Below, piece by piece: positions 270 through 16,819 of a DNA stretch of 64,000 bases (positions within the stretch are counted from its first letter, which is position 1; each line of letters opens with the position of its first letter). The stretch comes from Escherichia coli (lineage in GTDB: Bacteria; Pseudomonadota; Gammaproteobacteria; Enterobacterales; Enterobacteriaceae): the NCBI RefSeq assembly GCF_011045215.1, contig NZ_CP049201.1; one strand, 5' to 3'. Both the position numbers and the translations under genes were made by a program. The notes beneath the pieces are model-generated. The model had not been told where the DNA came from. It searched no databases and worked only from the letters and a program-made list of their open reading frames with translations.

Positions 270-545
270 CTATTTAAGATAGGCACGAACCAGTTCAATA
301 GTGTCGTCAACGGATTGGCTGACTTCGCGGCTGTAGCAGTCATTTCGGTCAAACGTTTCCCGGATATGGCTTTCAAGCACTTCTGCCATCAGCCCATTAG
401 CCGCGCCCCGAACGGCAGCGATCTGTTGGAGTATGGCACGGCATTCGGCATCACCCTCCAGCGACCGTTCCAGAGCATCAATCTGCCCTCGAATACGACG
501 AACTCGAGTAAGGACCTTTTTCTTCTCTTCCGGAGTACTGGGCAT
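270..545 (-). CDS. frmR: Formaldehyde-responsive transcriptional repressor FrmR (CsoR/RcnR family)
   Basis: ORF track 270..566; translation [52 protein letters not shown] matches FrmR. Start trimmed to the MPSTPEE methionine, giving the expected 91 aa. Confidence 0.9.
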
Positions 546-620: not shown

Positions 621-704
621 ATAACACTGGAGAATAATTGTTGTCCGAAGCCTAACCAGGCGAACGGTCCCTCAAGACAGATGGGGACCGTTTATGTGCT
701 ATTT

Positions 705-1763
705 TTATGCCGCATCCGCTAAAACAAACATCCCGTAAGGATGGATTTCGAGGTAATAGTGCTCACCAATATCGGGCTGTAAACGGGTGGCGTTTACTTG
801 TAATAAAATCTCCTGTCCATGCCACTCTACGGTCACTTCGTACTGCGGCCCCATGTAGGCGACATGGCGAATAACACAACGCTGACTCTCTTCGCCGTGA
901 TTGCTTAAGGTGATGGCTTCCGGGCGAACGCCGACGGTGCCGCTACCTTGCGCCGGGAAATGCGCCGCGCGCGGCAGGCGATAACCGTAGATATCGACAT
1001 ACTCTTCGCTAAAGTTCGCCGGGAACAGGTTGGCGTCGCCCATAAAACTTGCCATAAATCGGGAGGCTGGCTGACGATAGAGATCCTGCGGTGAGCCAAT
1101 CTGCATGATGTGACCTTTATTCATCACCAGCACAGTGTCGGACACCGCGAAAGCTTCACTTTGATCGTGAGTGACGTAGAGCGACGTGATATTAAACTGC
1201 TTTTGCAGCTCGCGGATCTTATCGCGCATACTGCGGCGCAGGTTGGCATCGAGGTTACTTAACGGCTCATCAAACAGCAGCACCTTTGGCTTGAGGATCA
1301 ACGCGCGGGCCAGTGCCACACGCTGTTGCTGACCACCGGAAATCTGATCGACATAGCGGTCCTCGAAGCCTTCCAGATCCACCATTGCCAGCGCCTCCTT
1401 CACCCGCTGTTTCACTTCGCTACGCGACACGCCAAGCATCTTCAGCCCGTAGCCAACGTTTTCACCCAGCGACATATGCGGGAACAGAGCGTATGACTGA
1501 AACACCATGCAGATATCGCGCTGTTGAATGGAACGATGCGTGACATCTTCGCCATCAATAAAAATTTGCCCTTCGCTCGGTTTTTCCAGCCCGGCAACCA
1601 GACGCAAAATGGTGGTTTTGCCACAGCCGGAAGGACCGAGCAGCGTCACCATTTGCCCTTGTGGAATGGTGAGATTGATATTGTCGATAACCGTATTACT
1701 GCCGAATCGTTTAGTGACGTTGCGCAGTTCAACAAAATTTTTCTGACTCATAGTGCGCTCCAT
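705..1763 (-). CDS. afuC: ABC transporter ATP-binding protein, AfuC/FbpC-like
   Basis: 352-aa ORF with Walker [13 protein letters not shown] signature [15 protein letters not shown], Walker B LLFDEPLS and a C-terminal TOBE-like extension. Start codon overlaps the upstream permease stop (TAATG). Confidence 0.85.
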
Positions 1764-3841
1764 TACGCCTGGTTTTTGGCTTTAGAACGGGAGATACGAG
1801 CTTCTCCGATCAGCCAGTCAAAGAGGAAAATAATCGCCAGCATCACCACGATCAGAATCGAACCATAGGCGATGGCTACGCCATATTCGCCGTCTTCAAC
1901 GCGGTTAAGAATGTAGGCGGTTGCCACGCGGGTGTCCGGCGTGACGAGAAAGACGATGGCGCTGACCGTCGTGATGGCCCGCACAAAGCTGTAGATCAGG
2001 GCCGAGAGAATGGCCGGACGCAGCAGCGGCAGTAAAATGTGGGTTATGGTTCGCAAGGAACCCGCGCGCAGGCTGAGTGAGGCTTCATCCAGCGATTTGT
2101 CGATCTGCCCCAGACCCGCAATCCCGGCGCGAATACCCACCGGAACGTTACGCATCACCATCGAGATAATCACAATTGCCGCCGTTCCGGTGAGATAAAC
2201 CGGAGCGCTGTTAAAGGCAAGAATATACGAAACGCCCGCCACCGTACCCGGTACGGCAAAGCACAGCATGGTGGTGAACTCGATGGTCTTTTTGCCTTTG
2301 AATTGTTGACGCACCACCACCCAGGCGATGAGCAGGCCAAAGATAGCGGTAATGGGAGCGGCAATCCCGGCGTAGAGCAGGGTATCCAGCAGTGAAGGCC
2401 ACGCGCCGTCGCTCATTCCCTGACCAAATAGCTTGATAAAGTTATCCAGCGTCAGGGTGTAGTCCACGCCCCAGTTCACCGTGAAGCTGCCGTAGAAAAT
2501 GCTGCCGTAGAGCAGGGCGTTAAAGGCAATCCATATCGCAAGTATGGCGACCACGCTCCACACCAGGGTGACCGGTAGCGGCTGGACGTCGCCACGGTAG
2601 GATTTGCCGGAAACCGTGACGTAAGAGCGTTTACCAATCCACATATACTGGATGCAGAACACCAGCAGCGAGAACAGCAGCAGGAAAGCGCCAAGGGTGC
2701 TGGCGGCCTGATAATCCAGCTGCGAGCCGGTAATATAGAAGTAAATTTGCGTCGCCAGTACGTCGAAGTTACCGCCAAGTACCAGCGGGTTACTGAAATC
2801 AGCCAGTGACTGTACCACGACGATTAAAAAGGCATTGGCGAGTGCGGGCTTTAGCAACGGCACAAACACGCCGTTAAAGGTTTGCCAGCGGCTGGCGCGC
2901 AGGGTGTAGGAGGCCTCTTCCAGCGAGGGATGAATGGTTTTAATGGCCCCGTCGAGGATCATAAATGCCATTGGCGTGAATGCCAGAACCTGTGCCAGCC
3001 AGATCCCGGTAAAACCGTACAGCCAGTTGGTGTTGGTCAGCCCAAACCACTCCACCATAAATTCCGTAACATAGCCGGAGCGCCCCATCATGAGCGTCAC
3101 GCCTAAGCCGACCACAAACGGTGGCGTAACGATGGGCAAAATGGAAAAGATGCGACCAATAATGGCGCTGCGTTTAGCGATGCGCGTGGTATAAATCGCC
3201 AGCACCAGGCCGAAGAAAGTACAGCCTATCCCCACCGCTATCGACAAGACGATAGAGTTGACGATCACCTGAACAATATGTGCCTGCGAGAGCACGGTCA
3301 TAAACGCCAGCGGGGCGAACTCTCCCGCGTCGTTGGTGAACATCGGGATAAAAATGGCGATGCTCGGCCAGACGATAAAAATGCCAATCAGCGCCACAAT
3401 CGCAATCAGTGAGCCGATCACGAAGCGGTCGCCGCCCAGCCATTCGAGGCGGGTTAAGGCCAGCGTCATAATCGCGCCTAGTTCAACAAACAGCACGATG
3501 GCGGCGTAGCCTAAACCGCGTCCAGCCACGGTGGCGCTGATGACGATAAACGCCATACAGAGCAATGCCCAGCTGGCATCAAAATAATGACGACTACGCT
3601 GTTCGCGTGTGACCTCACGAAACGGGCGAACCAGCAACAGACTCGGTAACAAATACCACAGCCAGCTGATATTAAAATGCGACCAGCCATAAGCCTCGAG
3701 GATCTCATCACTCGTGGACTCCAGCAGGCCATAATCGAGGCTCCAGCTCGGCAACAGTATAAATGCCAGCCAGCCCAGCAAAACCCAAAGGAAAATCGCA
3801 TCCCGCTTTTTCACGGGATGGAGTGCAAGTGTCTGTGACAT
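1763..3841 (-). CDS. afuB: ABC transporter permease, fused two-domain, AfuB/FbpB-like
   Basis: ORF track 1763..3892 (709 aa, highly hydrophobic, two permease halves). The 3892 start is a TTG; the ATG at 3841 (MSQTLALHP) is more plausible. Start is uncertain by 17 codons. Confidence 0.8.
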
Positions 3842-3909
3842 AGCAGTTCCGGTATGGTTGGCCGGGGCAGGCGTTTGTGCTGCACCCGGCAAATACGCCT
3901 AATGCGGGT

Positions 3910-4941
3910 TTATTTACCCATCTTCACTTCGCTGACCCATTTATTAATCAATGCCTTACGAACATCCGTGGAACCATATTTATCCATGTCGTAGTTGATT
4001 AATTTCAGGTCGTCGAGCTTCAGCGAATTTGGCGACGTTTCGGCGGTGGTATTGGTCAGGATCTGATAAGACTTCCCTTTCTTCCACGCCAGTTCCTGAG
4101 CTTCTTTTGATAATACCCAGTCCACAAACAGTTTGGCGTTGTCGAGGTTGCGCGCGCCTTTCAGAATGCTGACGCCGCCAATTTCGTAGCCCGTACCTTC
4201 ACACGGGGAAATCAACTCCAGCGGCGCGCCCTGTTCTTTTTCCAGCGAGTAGTCATGCAGGAAGCCAATACCAATCGCCGTTTCGCCACGGGCGGCGTTA
4301 CGTGCCGGGGCTATGCCTGATTTGGTGTACTGAGAGACGTTGGCGTTCAGTTGTTTTAGATAATCAAAGGCCTGATCTTCCCCCCACAGCTGCGCAAAAG
4401 TAGCCAGGGCGGTGTAGGCAGTACCGGAACTTTGCGGATCGGCAATTTGAATTTCGCCTTTATATTCCGGTTTGGTGAGATCTTTCCAGCACTTCGGCAC
4501 CGGCAGGTTTTTCTCTTTCAGACGATCGGTGTTTACGCCAAAACCGAGGATCCCCACATAAACGGCAGAGGACAGATTCCCTTTCACTTTTGCCGGATCG
4601 CGGAATTTCTCCATGATCTGCTCAAGGTTAGGGGATTTATACGCCTGTAGCAGGCCCATCTCGCCAGCCTGCGATTGCGGGTCTAAAGTGCCGCCGTACC
4701 AGACGTCAGCCTGGGGGTTTTTCTTTTCAGCATCGACTTTTGCCAGGGTGCTTCCGGAACCGTTGCGGATAAACGAGGTTTTTACATCATATTTCTCGCC
4801 AAACGCTTTGGTTTCGGCCTCACACATTTCATTGGTGGCGCTGCAATAGACCACCAGCCGGCCTTTTGCCTGCGCGGCACCCGTTAAAGTCGCCAGCGCA
4901 ACGGCAGAAGCAATCAGAGTAGAGGTAAAGGTCATTTTCAT
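3910..4941 (-). CDS. afuA: Periplasmic substrate-binding protein of ABC transporter, AfuA/FbpA-like
   Basis: ORF track 3910..5268 trimmed to MKMTFTSTLIASAVALATLTGAAQA (signal peptide), giving 343 aa. Its ATG overlaps the stop of the upstream UhpC-like gene (ATGA at 4938..4941). Confidence 0.85.
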   Translation of the reverse strand: MKMTFTSTLIASAVALATLTGAAQAKGRLVVYCSATNEMCEAETKAFGEKYDVKTSFIRNGSGSTLAKVDAEKKNPQADVWYGGTLDPQSQAGEMGLLQAYKSPNLEQIMEKFRDPAKVKGNLSSAVYVGILGFGVNTDRLKEKNLPVPKCWKDLTKPEYKGEIQIADPQSSGTAYTALATFAQLWGEDQAFDYLKQLNANVSQYTKSGIAPARNAARGETAIGIGFLHDYSLEKEQGAPLELISPCEGTGYEIGGVSILKGARNLDNAKLFVDWVLSKEAQELAWKKGKSYQILTNTTAETSPNSLKLDDLKLINYDMDKYGSTDVRKALINKWVSEVKMGK

Positions 4942-6254
4942 TGTTTTATCCTTCGAGCGTGAGTGGTGGTGATGCCCGCCATCAGTAACGGCATCAGCAG
5001 TAAACCCATAAGTACTGCGGCGACCGAGAGTAAACTGAACATTCCCGGCCAGCCGTAGCGTTCGATGACCAGCGACAGCGGCCAGCCTGCCAGCGCCGCG
5101 CCAAGGTAAGCGAACAGGCCGAGAAATCCGGTGATTGAACCCGCCGCAGCTTTGTGCCCACACTCCACCGCCGCAAGTCCAATCAGCATTTGTGGGCCAA
5201 AGACGAAAAAGCCCACGGTAAAAAAGCACACTGCCAGCAGAGCGTAGTGATGAACCGGTGCCAGCCACAGTGCGGCGACTGACACCATCAACCCCAACGT
5301 GAACAGCAAAATCATTGGCGCTCGTTGCCCGCTAAACAGCAAATCCGATCCCCATCCGGCAAATAACGCGCCGAGTAAGCCGCCCACTTCAAACAGCATT
5401 ACCGTGGCGTTGGCGCTGAGCAGGTTGACACCGTGGCTTTCCGTCAGCCAGATATTGCCCCAGTCGTTAAGCGCAATCCGGATCACATAAACCAGTACAT
5501 AAGAGACGCCCAGTAGCCAGATCAGCGGATTTTGCAGCATGGTGGTGCGCAACATTTGCCACAGCCCCATCGGCGGACTTTGTTGTTCCTGACGTAACTC
5601 CAGCGGATCGTGACGCCAGTGACCAACTGTCGGTAATCCCTCTTCCTGGGGCGTGCCTTTGAGTTGTAGCGTTAACCAGATCCCTAATGCCATGCTGATT
5701 ATCCCCGGTGTCAGCATCGCGGCCTGCCAGCCCCACCAGTGGGCGGCAAAGGCGCTAATCAGCGGAATAATCGCTCCGCCAATGTTGATCGACATATTCC
5801 AGCAGCCCCACCAGAAACCGCGCTCATTGCGTGAGTACCAGTGGGTCAGCAAGCGGGCACACGGTGGCCATCCCCAGCCCTGAAAAAAACCGTTCAGTGT
5901 CCAGACCACAAGCAGAAGCGTAAGTGATTCGCCAAAGGCAAACACCACGTTCAATAACCCGGTGGCGAACAAGCCGACGCCCATAAAACCGCGTTGTCCG
6001 TGGCTGTCATGCCACAGTCCGGCGGTAAATTTCGACAATCCGTAGCTGAGATAAAACAGCGAACCCAGCAGGCCAATGTCGCCTTTATCCAGTCCGAGGT
6101 CGGTTTGTAGCGCCGGAAGGACGTAATTCACGCTTTTTCGCGTCAGATAAAATGCGGCGTAGCCAATAATCATGCACATCAGCAATCGCGGACGTAATGT
6201 CCGGTAGCATTGATTAATTTCTCTCGCTGAACGCGCGTGCATGGTTGTCTCCAT
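4938..6254 (-). CDS. MFS sugar-phosphate sensor/transporter, UhpC-like
   Basis: 438-aa polytopic membrane protein with organophosphate:Pi antiporter family features (G-rich TM helices, 12 predicted TM segments). Resembles UhpC/UhpT but sits in a separate locus. Confidence 0.8.
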   Translation of the reverse strand: METTMHARSAREINQCYRTLRPRLLMCMIIGYAAFYLTRKSVNYVLPALQTDLGLDKGDIGLLGSLFYLSYGLSKFTAGLWHDSHGQRGFMGVGLFATGLLNVVFAFGESLTLLLVVWTLNGFFQGWGWPPCARLLTHWYSRNERGFWWGCWNMSINIGGAIIPLISAFAAHWWGWQAAMLTPGIISMALGIWLTLQLKGTPQEEGLPTVGHWRHDPLELRQEQQSPPMGLWQMLRTTMLQNPLIWLLGVSYVLVYVIRIALNDWGNIWLTESHGVNLLSANATVMLFEVGGLLGALFAGWGSDLLFSGQRAPMILLFTLGLMVSVAALWLAPVHHYALLAVCFFTVGFFVFGPQMLIGLAAVECGHKAAAGSITGFLGLFAYLGAALAGWPLSLVIERYGWPGMFSLLSVAAVLMGLLLMPLLMAGITTTHARRIKQ

Positions 6255-6326
6255 GTTGCTGACTATATGAAAATGAAAGTGAAAGGGGATGAGAGAAAAT
6301 CCGGGATACCTAAGACTTTTTCCTGG

Positions 6327-7868
6327 TTATCCGGCGATTTGTTGCAAAAATGTGGGCAAGTTAACAATTACCCGCGTGCCGTGCTGTTTTTCGAGCGTTA
6401 AGTCGCCGCCCAGGGCGCTGACGCGCTCACGCATCCCCTGAATGCCAAATCCGGCCATTTTCCCGCTGGCGATCCCCACACCGTTGTCGCTGACTTCCAG
6501 ATGCAATACCTCTCCCTGCTGGCGCAGGATAATCGTCACTTCGCTGGCTTCGGCGTGTTTACAGATGTTATTGAGCAACTCCTGCAATAACCGATACAAG
6601 GTAAAGCGCACCGTTTCGTTTTCTGGTGTGGAGTTCAGTTGATAGGCAAACTGGCAATGAATGCCGCGTTCACTAAAGGCAAATTCATTAATCAGATGCA
6701 ACAACGCTTCGCGAAATGTCAGTTCATCAAGCGCGGGAGGCCGCAACTGGCGTAGCAATTGGCGGGTGGAGAGATGAATGCGGCGGGCGAGCTCATTGAT
6801 TTGGCTGGCTGCGGATTGAATTTGCGCCGGATCACGCGCCCGCTTCACCAGTTGCGACTGGATCTGAATGGCGGTGATGTTCTGACCGATTTCGTCGTGC
6901 AGCTCTCGCGCCAGGTTTTTTCGCGTGTCCTCCTCGGTGTGGATCAGCTTTTCCGCCAATGCCCGCCGCGCTGCCAGCTCGGCCTCCAGCCGTTGTCGGT
7001 AATGGTGCAGGTTTAGCGCCAGATGTTGCTGGCGACTGATGGCAATGCCCAGGCCAATTCCCAGCAAGGCCTGGGTCGCGAGGAAAATCTCCAGCTCCAC
7101 CAGGTTACTAAAGCCCACGCCAATCTGGCGGGCGATGGTGATCATCATGCTGCCCAAAAGCCCGGAGAGTACGCCACCTTGCCAGCCAAATTTCCACGCC
7201 ATCACCACATTGGGCAAAAAGACCACGATCAACAGCAGACGTTCAATTTCAGGTGACAGCACCATCTGAGTGCCGATACCAATAATAAAAAACAGGCTAC
7301 ACCAGATGATTAAAGAGGTACGCAAGGGGGGATTATGCGTATCGAGTCCCAGGAGCTGGTAGCGATGCTGCTGGCGCAGAAACTCAAAGATAAGATAGAC
7401 AAACGGCGTCAGTAATACGCCGCCGGTAAATGAGGTCAAACCCGGCAGCATTATTGGGCCCGACATAAAAGGGGAGAGCAGGGCGGTATTCAACAATGAA
7501 GCTGCCGTGACAGTGGCTAACAGCAACGTCAGACGCTGCCAGTAAAGTGGAAAACGGTGCCAGAAGTTTTGCGCAAGGAGGACAGGAAACAGGCTAATAA
7601 CCGGCGTTGCCAGCATGAGATAACCGTTCAATAGCTGTTCACTATGGAGCCAGAACATCATCAGCAAAGGGGGGAGCACCAACGCAGGCCAGTAGCGGCG
7701 AGAGAGCAAAATAACAAGGGCGAGATAAACTCCCTGAGGGAGAAACAACACTGCCTGTTGACCGTTATTGGTCAGATAAAAGCTGAGCGTCCACAGCATC
7801 AGCCAGCCGGTTCCCCAGGCCAGCACAATAAACAGCGAAATCACCCAATGACGAAGATTGCGCGACAT
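6327..7868 (-). CDS. Sensor histidine kinase, UhpB-like (MASE1 membrane domain + HisKA_3/HATPase)
   Basis: 513 aa; N-terminal multi-TM region, H-box ELHDEIGQN and NarX/UhpB-type ATPase motifs (DNGVGI, GFGIQGMRERV). Confidence 0.85.
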   Translation of the reverse strand: MSRNLRHWVISLFIVLAWGTGWLMLWTLSFYLTNNGQQAVLFLPQGVYLALVILLSRRYWPALVLPPLLMMFWLHSEQLLNGYLMLATPVISLFPVLLAQNFWHRFPLYWQRLTLLLATVTAASLLNTALLSPFMSGPIMLPGLTSFTGGVLLTPFVYLIFEFLRQQHRYQLLGLDTHNPPLRTSLIIWCSLFFIIGIGTQMVLSPEIERLLLIVVFLPNVVMAWKFGWQGGVLSGLLGSMMITIARQIGVGFSNLVELEIFLATQALLGIGLGIAISRQQHLALNLHHYRQRLEAELAARRALAEKLIHTEEDTRKNLARELHDEIGQNITAIQIQSQLVKRARDPAQIQSAASQINELARRIHLSTRQLLRQLRPPALDELTFREALLHLINEFAFSERGIHCQFAYQLNSTPENETVRFTLYRLLQELLNNICKHAEASEVTIILRQQGEVLHLEVSDNGVGIASGKMAGFGIQGMRERVSALGGDLTLEKQHGTRVIVNLPTFLQQIAG

Positions 7869-8497
7869 TAATGCCCCGCCAGCAGATGGTGGTCGAGCGC
7901 AAAATGTACCAGTTCAATGGTGCTATGGCAGTTCAGTTTTCCCAGCACATTGGCGCGATGCACATGTACCGTTTTATGACTGAGTTCGAGTTTAAAGGCG
8001 ATCTCTTTAACGCTGTCTCCTTTGACCAGTAAATCAAACACTTCACGTTCTCGTGGGGTGAGAATTTCTAGCGCCTGGGCGGGTTGCCCGCCGCCGCGTA
8101 AAGCCCGAATCGCATCGGCACAGAGATAATGCCCGCCCAGCCCGACCGAGCGCACCGCCTGTACTAACTCTTCCGGCCCACAGCGTTTGGTTAAATACCC
8201 GCTGGCACCAGCATCCAGCGCGCTTTGCACAAAGGTTGGCGCGTCATAAATGCTAAGAATAATGGCGCGAAATTGCGGTTTTTGTGCACGCAGGCGCTTA
8301 AGCAAACTGAGGCCGTTTTCGTCCGGCATGGCAATATCAATGACGGCAACATTGACGTCATCACGGATTAATGCCGACCATGCCTGCGCGGCACTACTGT
8401 ACTGACCAATGACCTCCAGATCGTCTTCCAGAGAGAGTAATTGTGCGAAGCCAGAGCGCACCACCACATGGTCATCCACCAGCACTACCCGAATCAT
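7868..8497 (-). CDS. Response regulator, UhpA-like (REC + LuxR-type HTH)
   Basis: 209 aa; MIRVVLVDDHVVVRSGFAQLL receiver domain and C-terminal LuxR HTH (KEIAFKLELSHKTVHVHRANVLGKL). Stop overlaps the kinase start by 1 nt. Confidence 0.85.
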   Translation of the reverse strand: MIRVVLVDDHVVVRSGFAQLLSLEDDLEVIGQYSSAAQAWSALIRDDVNVAVIDIAMPDENGLSLLKRLRAQKPQFRAIILSIYDAPTFVQSALDAGASGYLTKRCGPEELVQAVRSVGLGGHYLCADAIRALRGGGQPAQALEILTPREREVFDLLVKGDSVKEIAFKLELSHKTVHVHRANVLGKLNCHSTIELVHFALDHHLLAGH

Positions 8498-8799
8498 ACT
8501 TTTCTTCTCTTATTATCTAATTCTCCTATCATGCATCACGGCGCGGCGCTGGCAATCAACCAGCGACAGATATGGAATGGATGTAACAAAATGGCAATAA
8601 TTTGCCGGAGCGCACACATCTTATCTGGCTTGTGAACCGGCGGGATACGTTCGCCAAAACCGCAAAATGCGCAAACTCGCTAACCATTGCCGATTTTTTT
8701 CTAAAAACGCTTTGTTCTTAACAAGACCTTTTAATTCCTTTATCAAACTGACCCGCAACGAAATACTGCTCCCATAACAAGACAGGGGAGCAGACAATC

Positions 8800-9762
8800 A
8801 TGGCAATTTCATCGCGTAACACTCTTCTTGCCGCACTGGCATTCATCGCTTTTCAGGCGCAGGCGGTGAACGTCACCGTGGCGTATCAAACCTCAGCCGA
8901 ACCGGCGAAAGTGGCTCAGGCTGATAACACCTTTGCCAAAGAGAGCGGGGCGAACGTGGACTGGCGCAAGTTTGACAGCGGAGCCAGCATCGTGCGGGCG
9001 CTGGCTTCAGGCGATGTGCAAATCGGCAACCTCGGTTCCAGCCCGTTAGCGGTTGCAGCCAGCCAACAGGTGCCGATTGAAGTCTTCTTGCTGGCGTCAA
9101 AACTGGGTAACTCCGAAGCGCTGGTGGTAAAGAAAACTATCAGCAAACCCGAGGATCTGATTGGCAAACGCATCGCAGTGCCGTTTATCTCCACCACCCA
9201 CTACAGCCTGCTGGCGGCGCTGAAACACTGGGGCATTAAACCCGGGCAAGTGGAGATTGTGAACCTGCAGCCGCCCGCGATTATCGCTGCCTGGCAGCGG
9301 GGAGATATTGATGGTGCTTATGTCTGGGCACCGGCGGTTAACGCCCTGGAAAAAGACGGCAAGGTGTTGACCGATTCTGAACAGGTCGGGCAGTGGGGCG
9401 CGCCAACGCTGGACGTTTGGGTGGTGCGCAAAGATTTTGCCGAGAAACATCCTGAGGTCGTGAAAGCGTTCGCTAAAAGCGCCATCGATGCTCAGCAACC
9501 GTACATTGCTAACCCAGACGTGTGGCTGAAACAGCCGGAAAACATCAGCAAACTGGCGCGTTTAAGCGGCGTGCCTGAAGGTGACGTTCCGGGGCTGGTG
9601 AAGGGGAATACCTATCTGACGCCGCAGCAACAAACGGCAGAACTGACCGGACCGGTGAACAAAGCGATCATCGACACCGCGCAGTTTTTGAAAGAGCAGG
9701 GCAAGGTCCCGGCTGTAGCGAATGATTACAGCCAGTACGTTACCTCGCGCTTCGTGCAATAA
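8800..9762 (+). CDS. tauA: Taurine ABC transporter periplasmic binding protein
   Basis: 320-aa ORF with signal peptide, matching TauA; followed by tauBCD in the canonical order. Confidence 0.92.
   Translation: MAISSRNTLLAALAFIAFQAQAVNVTVAYQTSAEPAKVAQADNTFAKESGANVDWRKFDSGASIVRALASGDVQIGNLGSSPLAVAASQQVPIEVFLLASKLGNSEALVVKKTISKPEDLIGKRIAVPFISTTHYSLLAALKHWGIKPGQVEIVNLQPPAIIAAWQRGDIDGAYVWAPAVNALEKDGKVLTDSEQVGQWGAPTLDVWVVRKDFAEKHPEVVKAFAKSAIDAQQPYIANPDVWLKQPENISKLARLSGVPEGDVPGLVKGNTYLTPQQQTAELTGPVNKAIIDTAQFLKEQGKVPAVANDYSQYVTSRFVQ

Positions 9763-13819: not shown

Positions 13820-16819
<3,000 letters not shown>

Follow-up and report, generated by a model that had tools for sequence, protein, structure and literature searches.

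What does a six-gene accessory block at a variable chromosomal site of Escherichia coli import, and to what signal do its regulators respond? The block lies between frmR and tauA in a 64,000-nucleotide stretch of E. coli DNA (assembly GCF_011045215.1, contig NZ_CP049201.1), which we call the window. Six minus-strand open reading frames (ORFs) encode, in order, a response regulator, a sensor histidine kinase, a UhpC-like major facilitator superfamily (MFS) protein, and AfuA, AfuB and AfuC, the parts of an ATP-binding cassette (ABC) transporter. A first-pass annotation of the window had proposed this gene order, and the ORF coordinates agree with it. This block has been described before, as the island O-island 20 (OI-20) of enterohaemorrhagic E. 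coli (EHEC), Z0458-Z0463. In strain EDL933, OI-20 (afuCBA, z0461, fusK, fusR) also occupies the frmR-tauA site, with an identical set and order of six genes. DNA identity is 99.0% over 8.2 kb with the block of O157:H7 strain Z570, and 99.4% with EDL933 in the kinase gene, although the window, unlike EDL933, is not O157:H7.

Two literatures describe this island, and they do not match. In one, the regulators form an O157:H7-specific fucose sensor; in the other, the adjacent transporter imports sugar phosphates. We propose, with a probability of roughly 0.6, that the island is a self-contained module that senses and imports external sugar phosphates under Uhp-like activation by its response regulator and CRP. 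The first-pass annotation had recognised the regulators as paralogues of UhpABC and the ABC system as an importer of phosphorylated sugars rather than Fe3+, and both readings are borne out by the evidence below. It had missed the names OI-20 and FusKR.

The six genes form a widespread unit. We scanned one genome per species, which gave 348 species with an AfuA relative, and examined the best 80 loci among them. All six genes were present in the same order in 73 of these 80 species-level loci, while the remaining seven end at the edge of the available sequence. The 80 loci cover about 28 named genera of Enterobacterales, including Citrobacter, Klebsiella, Enterobacter, Serratia, Buttiauxella, Rahnella, Erwinia, Pantoea, Brenneria and Yersinia, and identity to the window kinase drops to 55% across them.

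A probable sugar-phosphate transporter beside Uhp-like regulators

The AfuABC transporter of the window probably imports sugar phosphates, as has been shown for its orthologues. Combining crystallography with calorimetry and with the complementation of a uhpT mutant, Sit et al. (2015; PMC4546632) established that AfuABC of Actinobacillus pleuropneumoniae and Citrobacter rodentium binds and imports the 6-phosphates of glucose and fructose as well as sedoheptulose-7-phosphate, and not iron. In the same study a C. rodentium afuA mutant was impaired in colonisation and transmission. The authors named the locus OI-20, with FusKR, and described the C. rodentium locus as conserved with OI-20; on the regulation of afuABC they noted only its proximity to FusKR. 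This is the report on AfuABC in enteric pathogens to which the first-pass annotation had alluded. Its assays cover the proteins of those two species, and for E. coli AfuABC we infer the function from 76% identity and from the ligand residues.

Specifically, AfuA (3910-4941, minus strand, as are all genes of the block) is the periplasmic sugar-phosphate-binding protein, with a signal peptide ending ...AQA/KG. Its mature form is 76% identical to the crystallised A. pleuropneumoniae AfuA (PDB 4R72-4R75; E=1.5e-169). Residues H229, D230 and E253 are the counterparts of the published H205, D206 and E229, with an unchanged spacing of 24 residues, and this His-Asp-Glu sugar triad is kept in 81/81 loci. 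AfuB (1763-3841) is a fused double-domain permease of 692 residues, both halves of which match NCBIfam permease models. AfuC (705-1751 from the RefSeq start, with the longest ORF reaching 1763) is an ABC ATPase of 348 residues. It scores 699.5 bits against the NCBIfam model PRK11432, 'ferric ABC transporter ATP-binding protein' (cut-off 496), and the profile begins at residue 5 of the longest ORF. The A. pleuropneumoniae and C. rodentium systems likewise combine a fused permease, an ATPase and the His-Asp-Glu triad.

The ferric systems FbpABC and HitABC share the fold class of the periplasmic binding protein and the ABC architecture with AfuABC, and are the source of its legacy annotation. In FbpA-type ferric-binding proteins, a pair of tyrosines coordinates the iron. 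Window AfuA lacks this pair: NNYYWY of HitA aligns with GFLHDY, so that Tyr-Tyr is replaced by Leu-His, and FbpA and HitA match the window protein only at E ~1e-11. A nearer relative is P5PA, a paralogous pyridoxal-5-phosphate-binding protein of Actinobacillus in the same subfamily (PDB 6WCE, E=1.5e-109). P5PA has GYALGG at the position of the triad glutamate whereas AfuA has GYEIGG, and the window protein is closer to AfuA.

Database names have been slow to follow. RefSeq still calls AfuC 'fbpC ferric ABC transporter ATP-binding protein' and AfuA simply 'ABC transporter substrate-binding protein', a decade after the specificity was shown. The best structural match to AfuA, PDB 8x1a (E=1.7e-173), has the same His-Asp-Glu triad and is titled 'Iron(III) ABC transporter, periplasmic iron-compound-binding protein'.

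The three regulatory genes resemble uhpA, uhpB and uhpC. The response regulator (7868-8497; the FusR/Z0463 orthologue), of NarL/FixJ type, has UhpA (NF007685) as its best NCBIfam match, at 193.4 bits and below the cut-off of 258. The best NCBIfam match of the kinase (6327-7868; the FusK/Z0462 orthologue) is UhpB, at 381.7 bits and just below the cut-off of 408. In Pfam terms its domains are MASE1 (11-281), HisKA_3 (316-380) and HATPase_c (423-505), which is the architecture of UhpB. The MFS protein (4938-6242, with the longest ORF to 6254; the Z0461 orthologue) belongs to the UhpC subfamily of NCBIfam, scoring 587.7 bits against NF008661, above the cut-off of 564. Identities to the K-12 proteins are 48% for the response regulator and UhpA, 35% for the kinase and UhpB, and 53% for the MFS protein and UhpC, compared with 29% for the MFS protein and UhpT. 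The response regulator and the kinase, both below their equivalog cut-offs, are thus paralogues of the Uhp proteins.

Residues at functional positions point the same way. The recognition helix of the response regulator, KTVHVHRAN, is that of UhpA in all 77 regulator sequences from the examined loci. In the UhpC-like protein, the residues aligned with UhpT R46, R275 and K82 do not vary, and at the positions of UhpT D388 and K391 the residues follow UhpC. The two arginines and the lysine at K82 are essential for organophosphate binding in the OPA family. Further, the K-12 uhp gene order of response regulator, kinase, sensor-like MFS protein and transporter is the order of the window, and the K-12 Uhp system and the window share the MASE1 kinase as well as the recognition helix. 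The transporters differ, since the window has an ATP-driven ABC system where K-12 uses the UhpT antiporter.

The genes are tightly packed. The kinase start lies on the stop of the response regulator gene (ATTAATG), and the stop of the MFS gene overlaps the start of afuA (ATGA). RefSeq places the start of the MFS gene at 6254 in O157:H7 Z570 and at 6242 in EC974. The second of these is probably the true start, because the upstream ATG is missing in most genera and a GGAG Shine-Dalgarno sequence precedes the second ATG.

A PuhpT-like promoter before the UhpC-like gene

The spacing of the genes suggests where regulation is applied. The kinase and MFS genes are separated by 72 bp in the window and by 63-84 bp at 74 of 78 loci; between the MFS gene and afuA, nearly all loci have an overlap or fewer than 60 bp. 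A constant gap followed by a tight junction points to a regulated promoter upstream of the UhpC-like gene, with this gene and afuABC forming one transcript.

Four candidate promoter elements lie here, all on the minus strand. The most distal, a CRP-like site, AATTGTTAACTTGCCCACATTT (6348-6369), sits inside the final codons of the kinase gene and has its centre at -103.5 relative to the predicted start. An alignment of 76 distinct sequences of the gap revealed the other three, as well as the Shine-Dalgarno sequence named above. An inverted repeat, CCAGGAAAAAGTCTTAG (6310-6326), begins at the base after the kinase stop, is centred at about -63, and is the candidate binding site of the response regulator. 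It is unique in the window, and in Buttiauxella, Rahnella, Erwinia and Ewingella it becomes a perfect palindrome, CCAGGAAtAATTCCTGG or CTAGGAATAATTCCTAG. There follows a near-invariant box, TCTCATCC (6287-6294), which contains CTCATCCC at -38 to -31. The last element is a predicted -10 hexamer, TATAGT (6262-6267), with a poor -35 (ATCCCC). A weak -35 is typical of an activator-dependent promoter.

Conservation indicates that these elements are under selection. Columns conserved at 90% or more make up 29 of 85 in the gap and 1 of 67 in the afuA-afuB spacer of the same loci. A distance of 72 nt from the CRP-like site to the TCTCATCC box is kept by 71 of 78 loci, and one of 27 nt from the box to the -10 hexamer by 74 of 78. 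The CRP-like site matches 16 of 22 consensus positions, and only four such matches occur in the roughly 128,000 positions of the window. Across 74 sequences, kinase codons -14 to -4 are frozen at their synonymous sites, with GTT, CCC and ACA each present in 74/74, while equally conserved amino acids just upstream use two to six codons. The sole variable base in the frozen stretch falls in the N6 spacer of the CRP-like site.

A similar arrangement is found at the K-12 uhpT promoter, PuhpT. We put both promoters in one frame by giving the first base of each -10 hexamer the number -12. This frame is validated by its reproduction of the published position of CRP at uhpT, which is centred at -103 (PMC5352689). 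There UhpA is essential, and CRP enhances transcription (PMC5352689; also PMC4790336). The centre of the CRP-like site is then -103.5 in both promoters, and that of the inverted repeat is -63 in the window and -64 in PuhpT. A CTCAnnCC motif lies at -38 to -31 in both, with CTCATCCC of the window aligning with CTCAGGCC of PuhpT, and the weak -35 is common to the two. The uhp pattern of a distal CRP site, UhpA sites from about -80 to -32 and a weak -35 is therefore present, as far as sequence can tell, in the window promoter. On the evidence of these alignments, the gap is shown to hold a PuhpT-like promoter under selection.

There are also differences from canonical uhp. The window repeat is a 7-3-7 palindrome, whereas the uhpT repeat has the form GGCAAAAC-N15-GTTTTGCC. 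The regulated promoter of the window sits upstream of the sensor gene, which would be induced together with the transporter, unlike in K-12.

We propose that the module works as follows. In the periplasm, AfuA would bind the 6-phosphate of glucose or of fructose, or sedoheptulose-7-phosphate, and AfuB and AfuC would spend ATP to bring the sugar phosphate in. The UhpC-like membrane protein would sense external hexose phosphate and signal to the MASE1 kinase. The kinase would phosphorylate the response regulator, which would then bind at -63, on the inverted repeat. With CRP-cAMP bound at -103.5, it would activate the weak-(-35) promoter in the 72-bp gap, from which the UhpC-like gene and afuABC would be expressed as a single transcript. 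Relative to canonical uhp, the ABC importer would replace UhpT, and the sensor gene would have moved into the induced operon. Such a position would give positive feedback. It would also make basal expression of the sensor depend on read-through, and the terminator scan called no strong terminator after the kinase gene.

Expression data fit the CRP part of this scheme. When O157:H7 Sakai exhausts its glucose, afuA rises 37-fold, more than any other O157-specific ORF (PMC2241611), as would be expected of a CRP-dependent gene. Control of afuABC by hexose phosphates, the central inference of the first-pass annotation, is plausible and unproven, with support from the promoter analysis; our literature search found no paper testing it.

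Several observations weigh against this scheme. Both the response regulator and the kinase fall below their equivalog cut-offs, and are consequently not orthologues of UhpA and UhpB, so that the signal could have diverged. The right half of the inverted repeat is degenerate in E. coli. The transcription start, at about 6255, is a prediction from sequence, and it implies a very short 5' leader of about 13 nt. The conserved palindrome bears no resemblance to the FusR site published for ler. Moreover, the repression of z0461 by FusR, as summarised in papers that cite the original work, is opposite in sign to the activation that we propose, and fucose is a different ligand.

A generic promoter scan makes no call at the gap promoter, which its weak -35 would explain, and promoter and terminator counts were no higher than in shuffled sequence. 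Upstream of the response regulator gene, where another copy of the palindrome would hint at autoregulation, none was found within three mismatches. When the published 29-nt FusR site at ler was compared with the palindrome, the best matches were 8-10 of 17 positions, no better than shuffles (p about 0.1-0.7), and we do not regard it as a related site.

Some loci depart from the usual layout. In Yersinia aldovae (L084, ~7340-7385), the kinase C-terminus reads ...IIVNLPTHSRATDAIDNDCVNLPTKVDQRRT, and the DNA encoding VNLPT, which holds the CRP-like element, is present twice. An insertion was tolerated here, it would seem, only as long as one copy kept its set distance from the promoter. Longer gaps between the kinase and MFS genes occur in Raoultella planticola (L014, 266 bp) and in a Buttiauxella metagenome-assembled genome (L075, 401 bp). 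In the former, the TCTCATCC box still adjoins the kinase stop, so something seems to have been inserted between the promoter and the MFS gene.

Fucose, cross-talk and iron

The strongest alternative is that the published view of FusKR is complete. FusK would then be a direct sensor of fucose, FusR would mainly repress ler, z0461 and the fuc genes, Z0461 would be an accessory fucose importer, and the adjacency of afuABC would have no regulatory meaning. This view comes from experiments. According to three papers that summarise Pacheco et al. 2012 (PMC11644481, PMC6199705, PMC4810492), FusK (Z0462) autophosphorylates on fucose, FusR (Z0463) represses ler, z0461 and fuc genes, and Z0461 aids fucose import. 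A 2026 study adds fusKR-dependent repression of the enterocyte effacement locus (LEE) when fucose is released.

The comparative evidence sits poorly with these claims as a full account. MASE1 is the only membrane domain of the kinase, as it is of UhpB, which needs UhpC as a co-sensor (PMC4790336). Z0461 scores above the UhpC cut-off and keeps phosphate-binding arginines that neutral fucose would not need. The six genes co-travel across about 28 genera, most of which lack the LEE. A conserved site at -63 of a weak-(-35) promoter is in the position of an activator, not of a repressor. Further, a transcriptome study found that z0461 and fusKR rose together in bovine gut contents, which its authors considered an ill fit to simple repression by FusR. 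In the literature that we searched, only Sit et al. (2015) name both FusK and UhpB, and we found there no test of FusK together with Z0461; Pacheco et al. 2012 enters that literature by way of its citing papers. We consider it unlikely that the fucose account is complete.

We also put forward a broader reading. FusKR may be the regulatory arm of an ancient, Enterobacterales-wide module of the UhpABC type. It would chiefly sense external hexose or heptose phosphates via Z0461 and, with CRP-cAMP, activate z0461-afuABC from the PuhpT-like promoter. The fucose response and the repression of the LEE would then be secondary, lineage-specific or indirect. We hold this broader proposal tentatively, at somewhat less than even odds.

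A second alternative accepts the promoter and changes its regulator. CRP with canonical UhpA, by cross-talk, or CRP alone could drive it while the response regulator of the island acts elsewhere. The recognition helices of UhpA and the island regulator are identical, so either protein might bind; CCAGG/CCTGG motifs are common to the window promoter and PuhpT; and CRP alone would suffice for the induction of afuA at glucose exhaustion. However, the promoter keeps the regulator, kinase and MFS genes as neighbours at every locus that we examined, as would be expected if they serve it, and the repeat differs from that of uhpT in both spacing and sequence. We regard this alternative as improbable, and as clearly less likely than our own proposal of Uhp-like control by the island's regulators.

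Finally, the view that AfuABC imports ferric iron, as the legacy RefSeq and NCBIfam names (fbpC, PRK11432) and the weak FbpA/HitA homology would have it, is very hard to sustain given the kept sugar triad, the missing tyrosine pair, the close identity to a protein crystallised with sugar phosphates, and the binding and transport data for the A. pleuropneumoniae and C. rodentium systems.

The island, its site and its carriers

The island extends from about 638 to 8661 in the window. This extent comes from blastn searches of an empty-site locus (L002) and a locus with a yaiO cassette (L003) against the window, in which homology stops at 637 and restarts at 8662. The flanking genes are frmR (270-545, minus strand) and tauA (8800-9762, plus strand). 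Complete E. coli genomes show the frmR-tauA site in one of three states: the six-gene block; a cassette of yaiO, an LbetaH protein, yaiP and a PIG-L remnant; or an empty site, where only ~305 bp separates the two genes. The suggestion of the first-pass annotation, made by comparison with K-12, that the block stands in place of the yaiO-yaiS cassette holds; other E. coli carry the yaiO cassette there. Likewise, as had been noted at first, neither an insertion sequence (IS) nor an integrase was found at the block junctions or among the neighbouring genes. As candidate target-site duplications, the junctions offered only weak resemblances of 8-9 nt, TTGTTGTCCG and TTATCTGGC, and we do not claim one.

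Three stretches near the island edges have features of possible regulatory interest. The island region upstream of the response regulator gene (8498-8661) contains a sigma-70-like sequence, TTGCCA-16-CATGAT, at 8528-8555, which is a consensus match only. Directly past the afuC stop, near the left edge of the island, a hairpin with a 9-bp stem, AACGGTCCCC...GGGACCGTT (663-692, minus strand), can be read from the sequence. It is a possible transcript end of the operon. Its T-rich tail is on the plus strand only, the minus strand has no U-run, and the terminator scan made no call there. Outside the island, upstream of frmR, lies a near-perfect inverted repeat of ~55 bp at 570-622, ATATACTATAGGGGGGTATGC...GCATACCCCCCTATAGTATAT, with G6/C6 tracts. 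It overlaps a strong promoter-like match at 572-600 and is common to genomes with and without the island; it is probably the promoter and operator of frmRAB.

The closest complete genome to the window is that of the urinary isolate EC974, with 99.8% identity over the island. The two are otherwise collinear at about 99.2-99.3% identity. An IS3-family element that splits an autotransporter gene in EC974 is missing from the window (~14811-14816).

Carriage of the island is wider than reviews allow. We found the kinase gene in 519 of 5,426 complete E. coli genomes, in three allele groups. The carriers include O157:H7, O145 and O169:H41, as well as isolates from pigs, poultry, water and human urine. 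Reviews state that FusKR is O157:H7-specific, and another statement has it that FusKR came from Enterococcus. Carriage in so many E. coli genomes and in many genera contradicts both.

Two further observations concern related genes. A second afuC (~86% identical) and an IS1-truncated 3' fragment of afuB lie beside mmuPM (L086, 9001-10408; L087, 9001-10407) on many E. coli chromosomes and some plasmids, without afuA. No regulators were found beside these fragments, which are remnants truncated by IS1 and show that afu genes have also moved with IS-rich DNA. In Citrobacter youngae ATCC 29220 (L018, ~8012-8014), the UhpC-like gene has one in-frame stop (…FAFG*SLTLL…) in an otherwise intact six-gene cluster. 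This is either a pseudogene or a sequencing error.

The locus itself is known already, with published work on what it transports and on its part in gut colonisation. What is new here is the breadth of the six-gene unit, its conserved PuhpT-like promoter, and the frozen synonymous sites at the CRP-like element. Where one literature has an O157:H7-specific fucose sensor and the other an importer of sugar phosphates, our comparisons favour a single unit controlled in the manner of Uhp. The exact promoter coordinates given here pose a testable challenge to the 'fucose sensor' label. If confirmed, Uhp-style control would revise the signal logic of a much-cited virulence regulator, correct the persistent 'ferric' annotation of afuC, and explain the behaviour of afuABC at glucose exhaustion.

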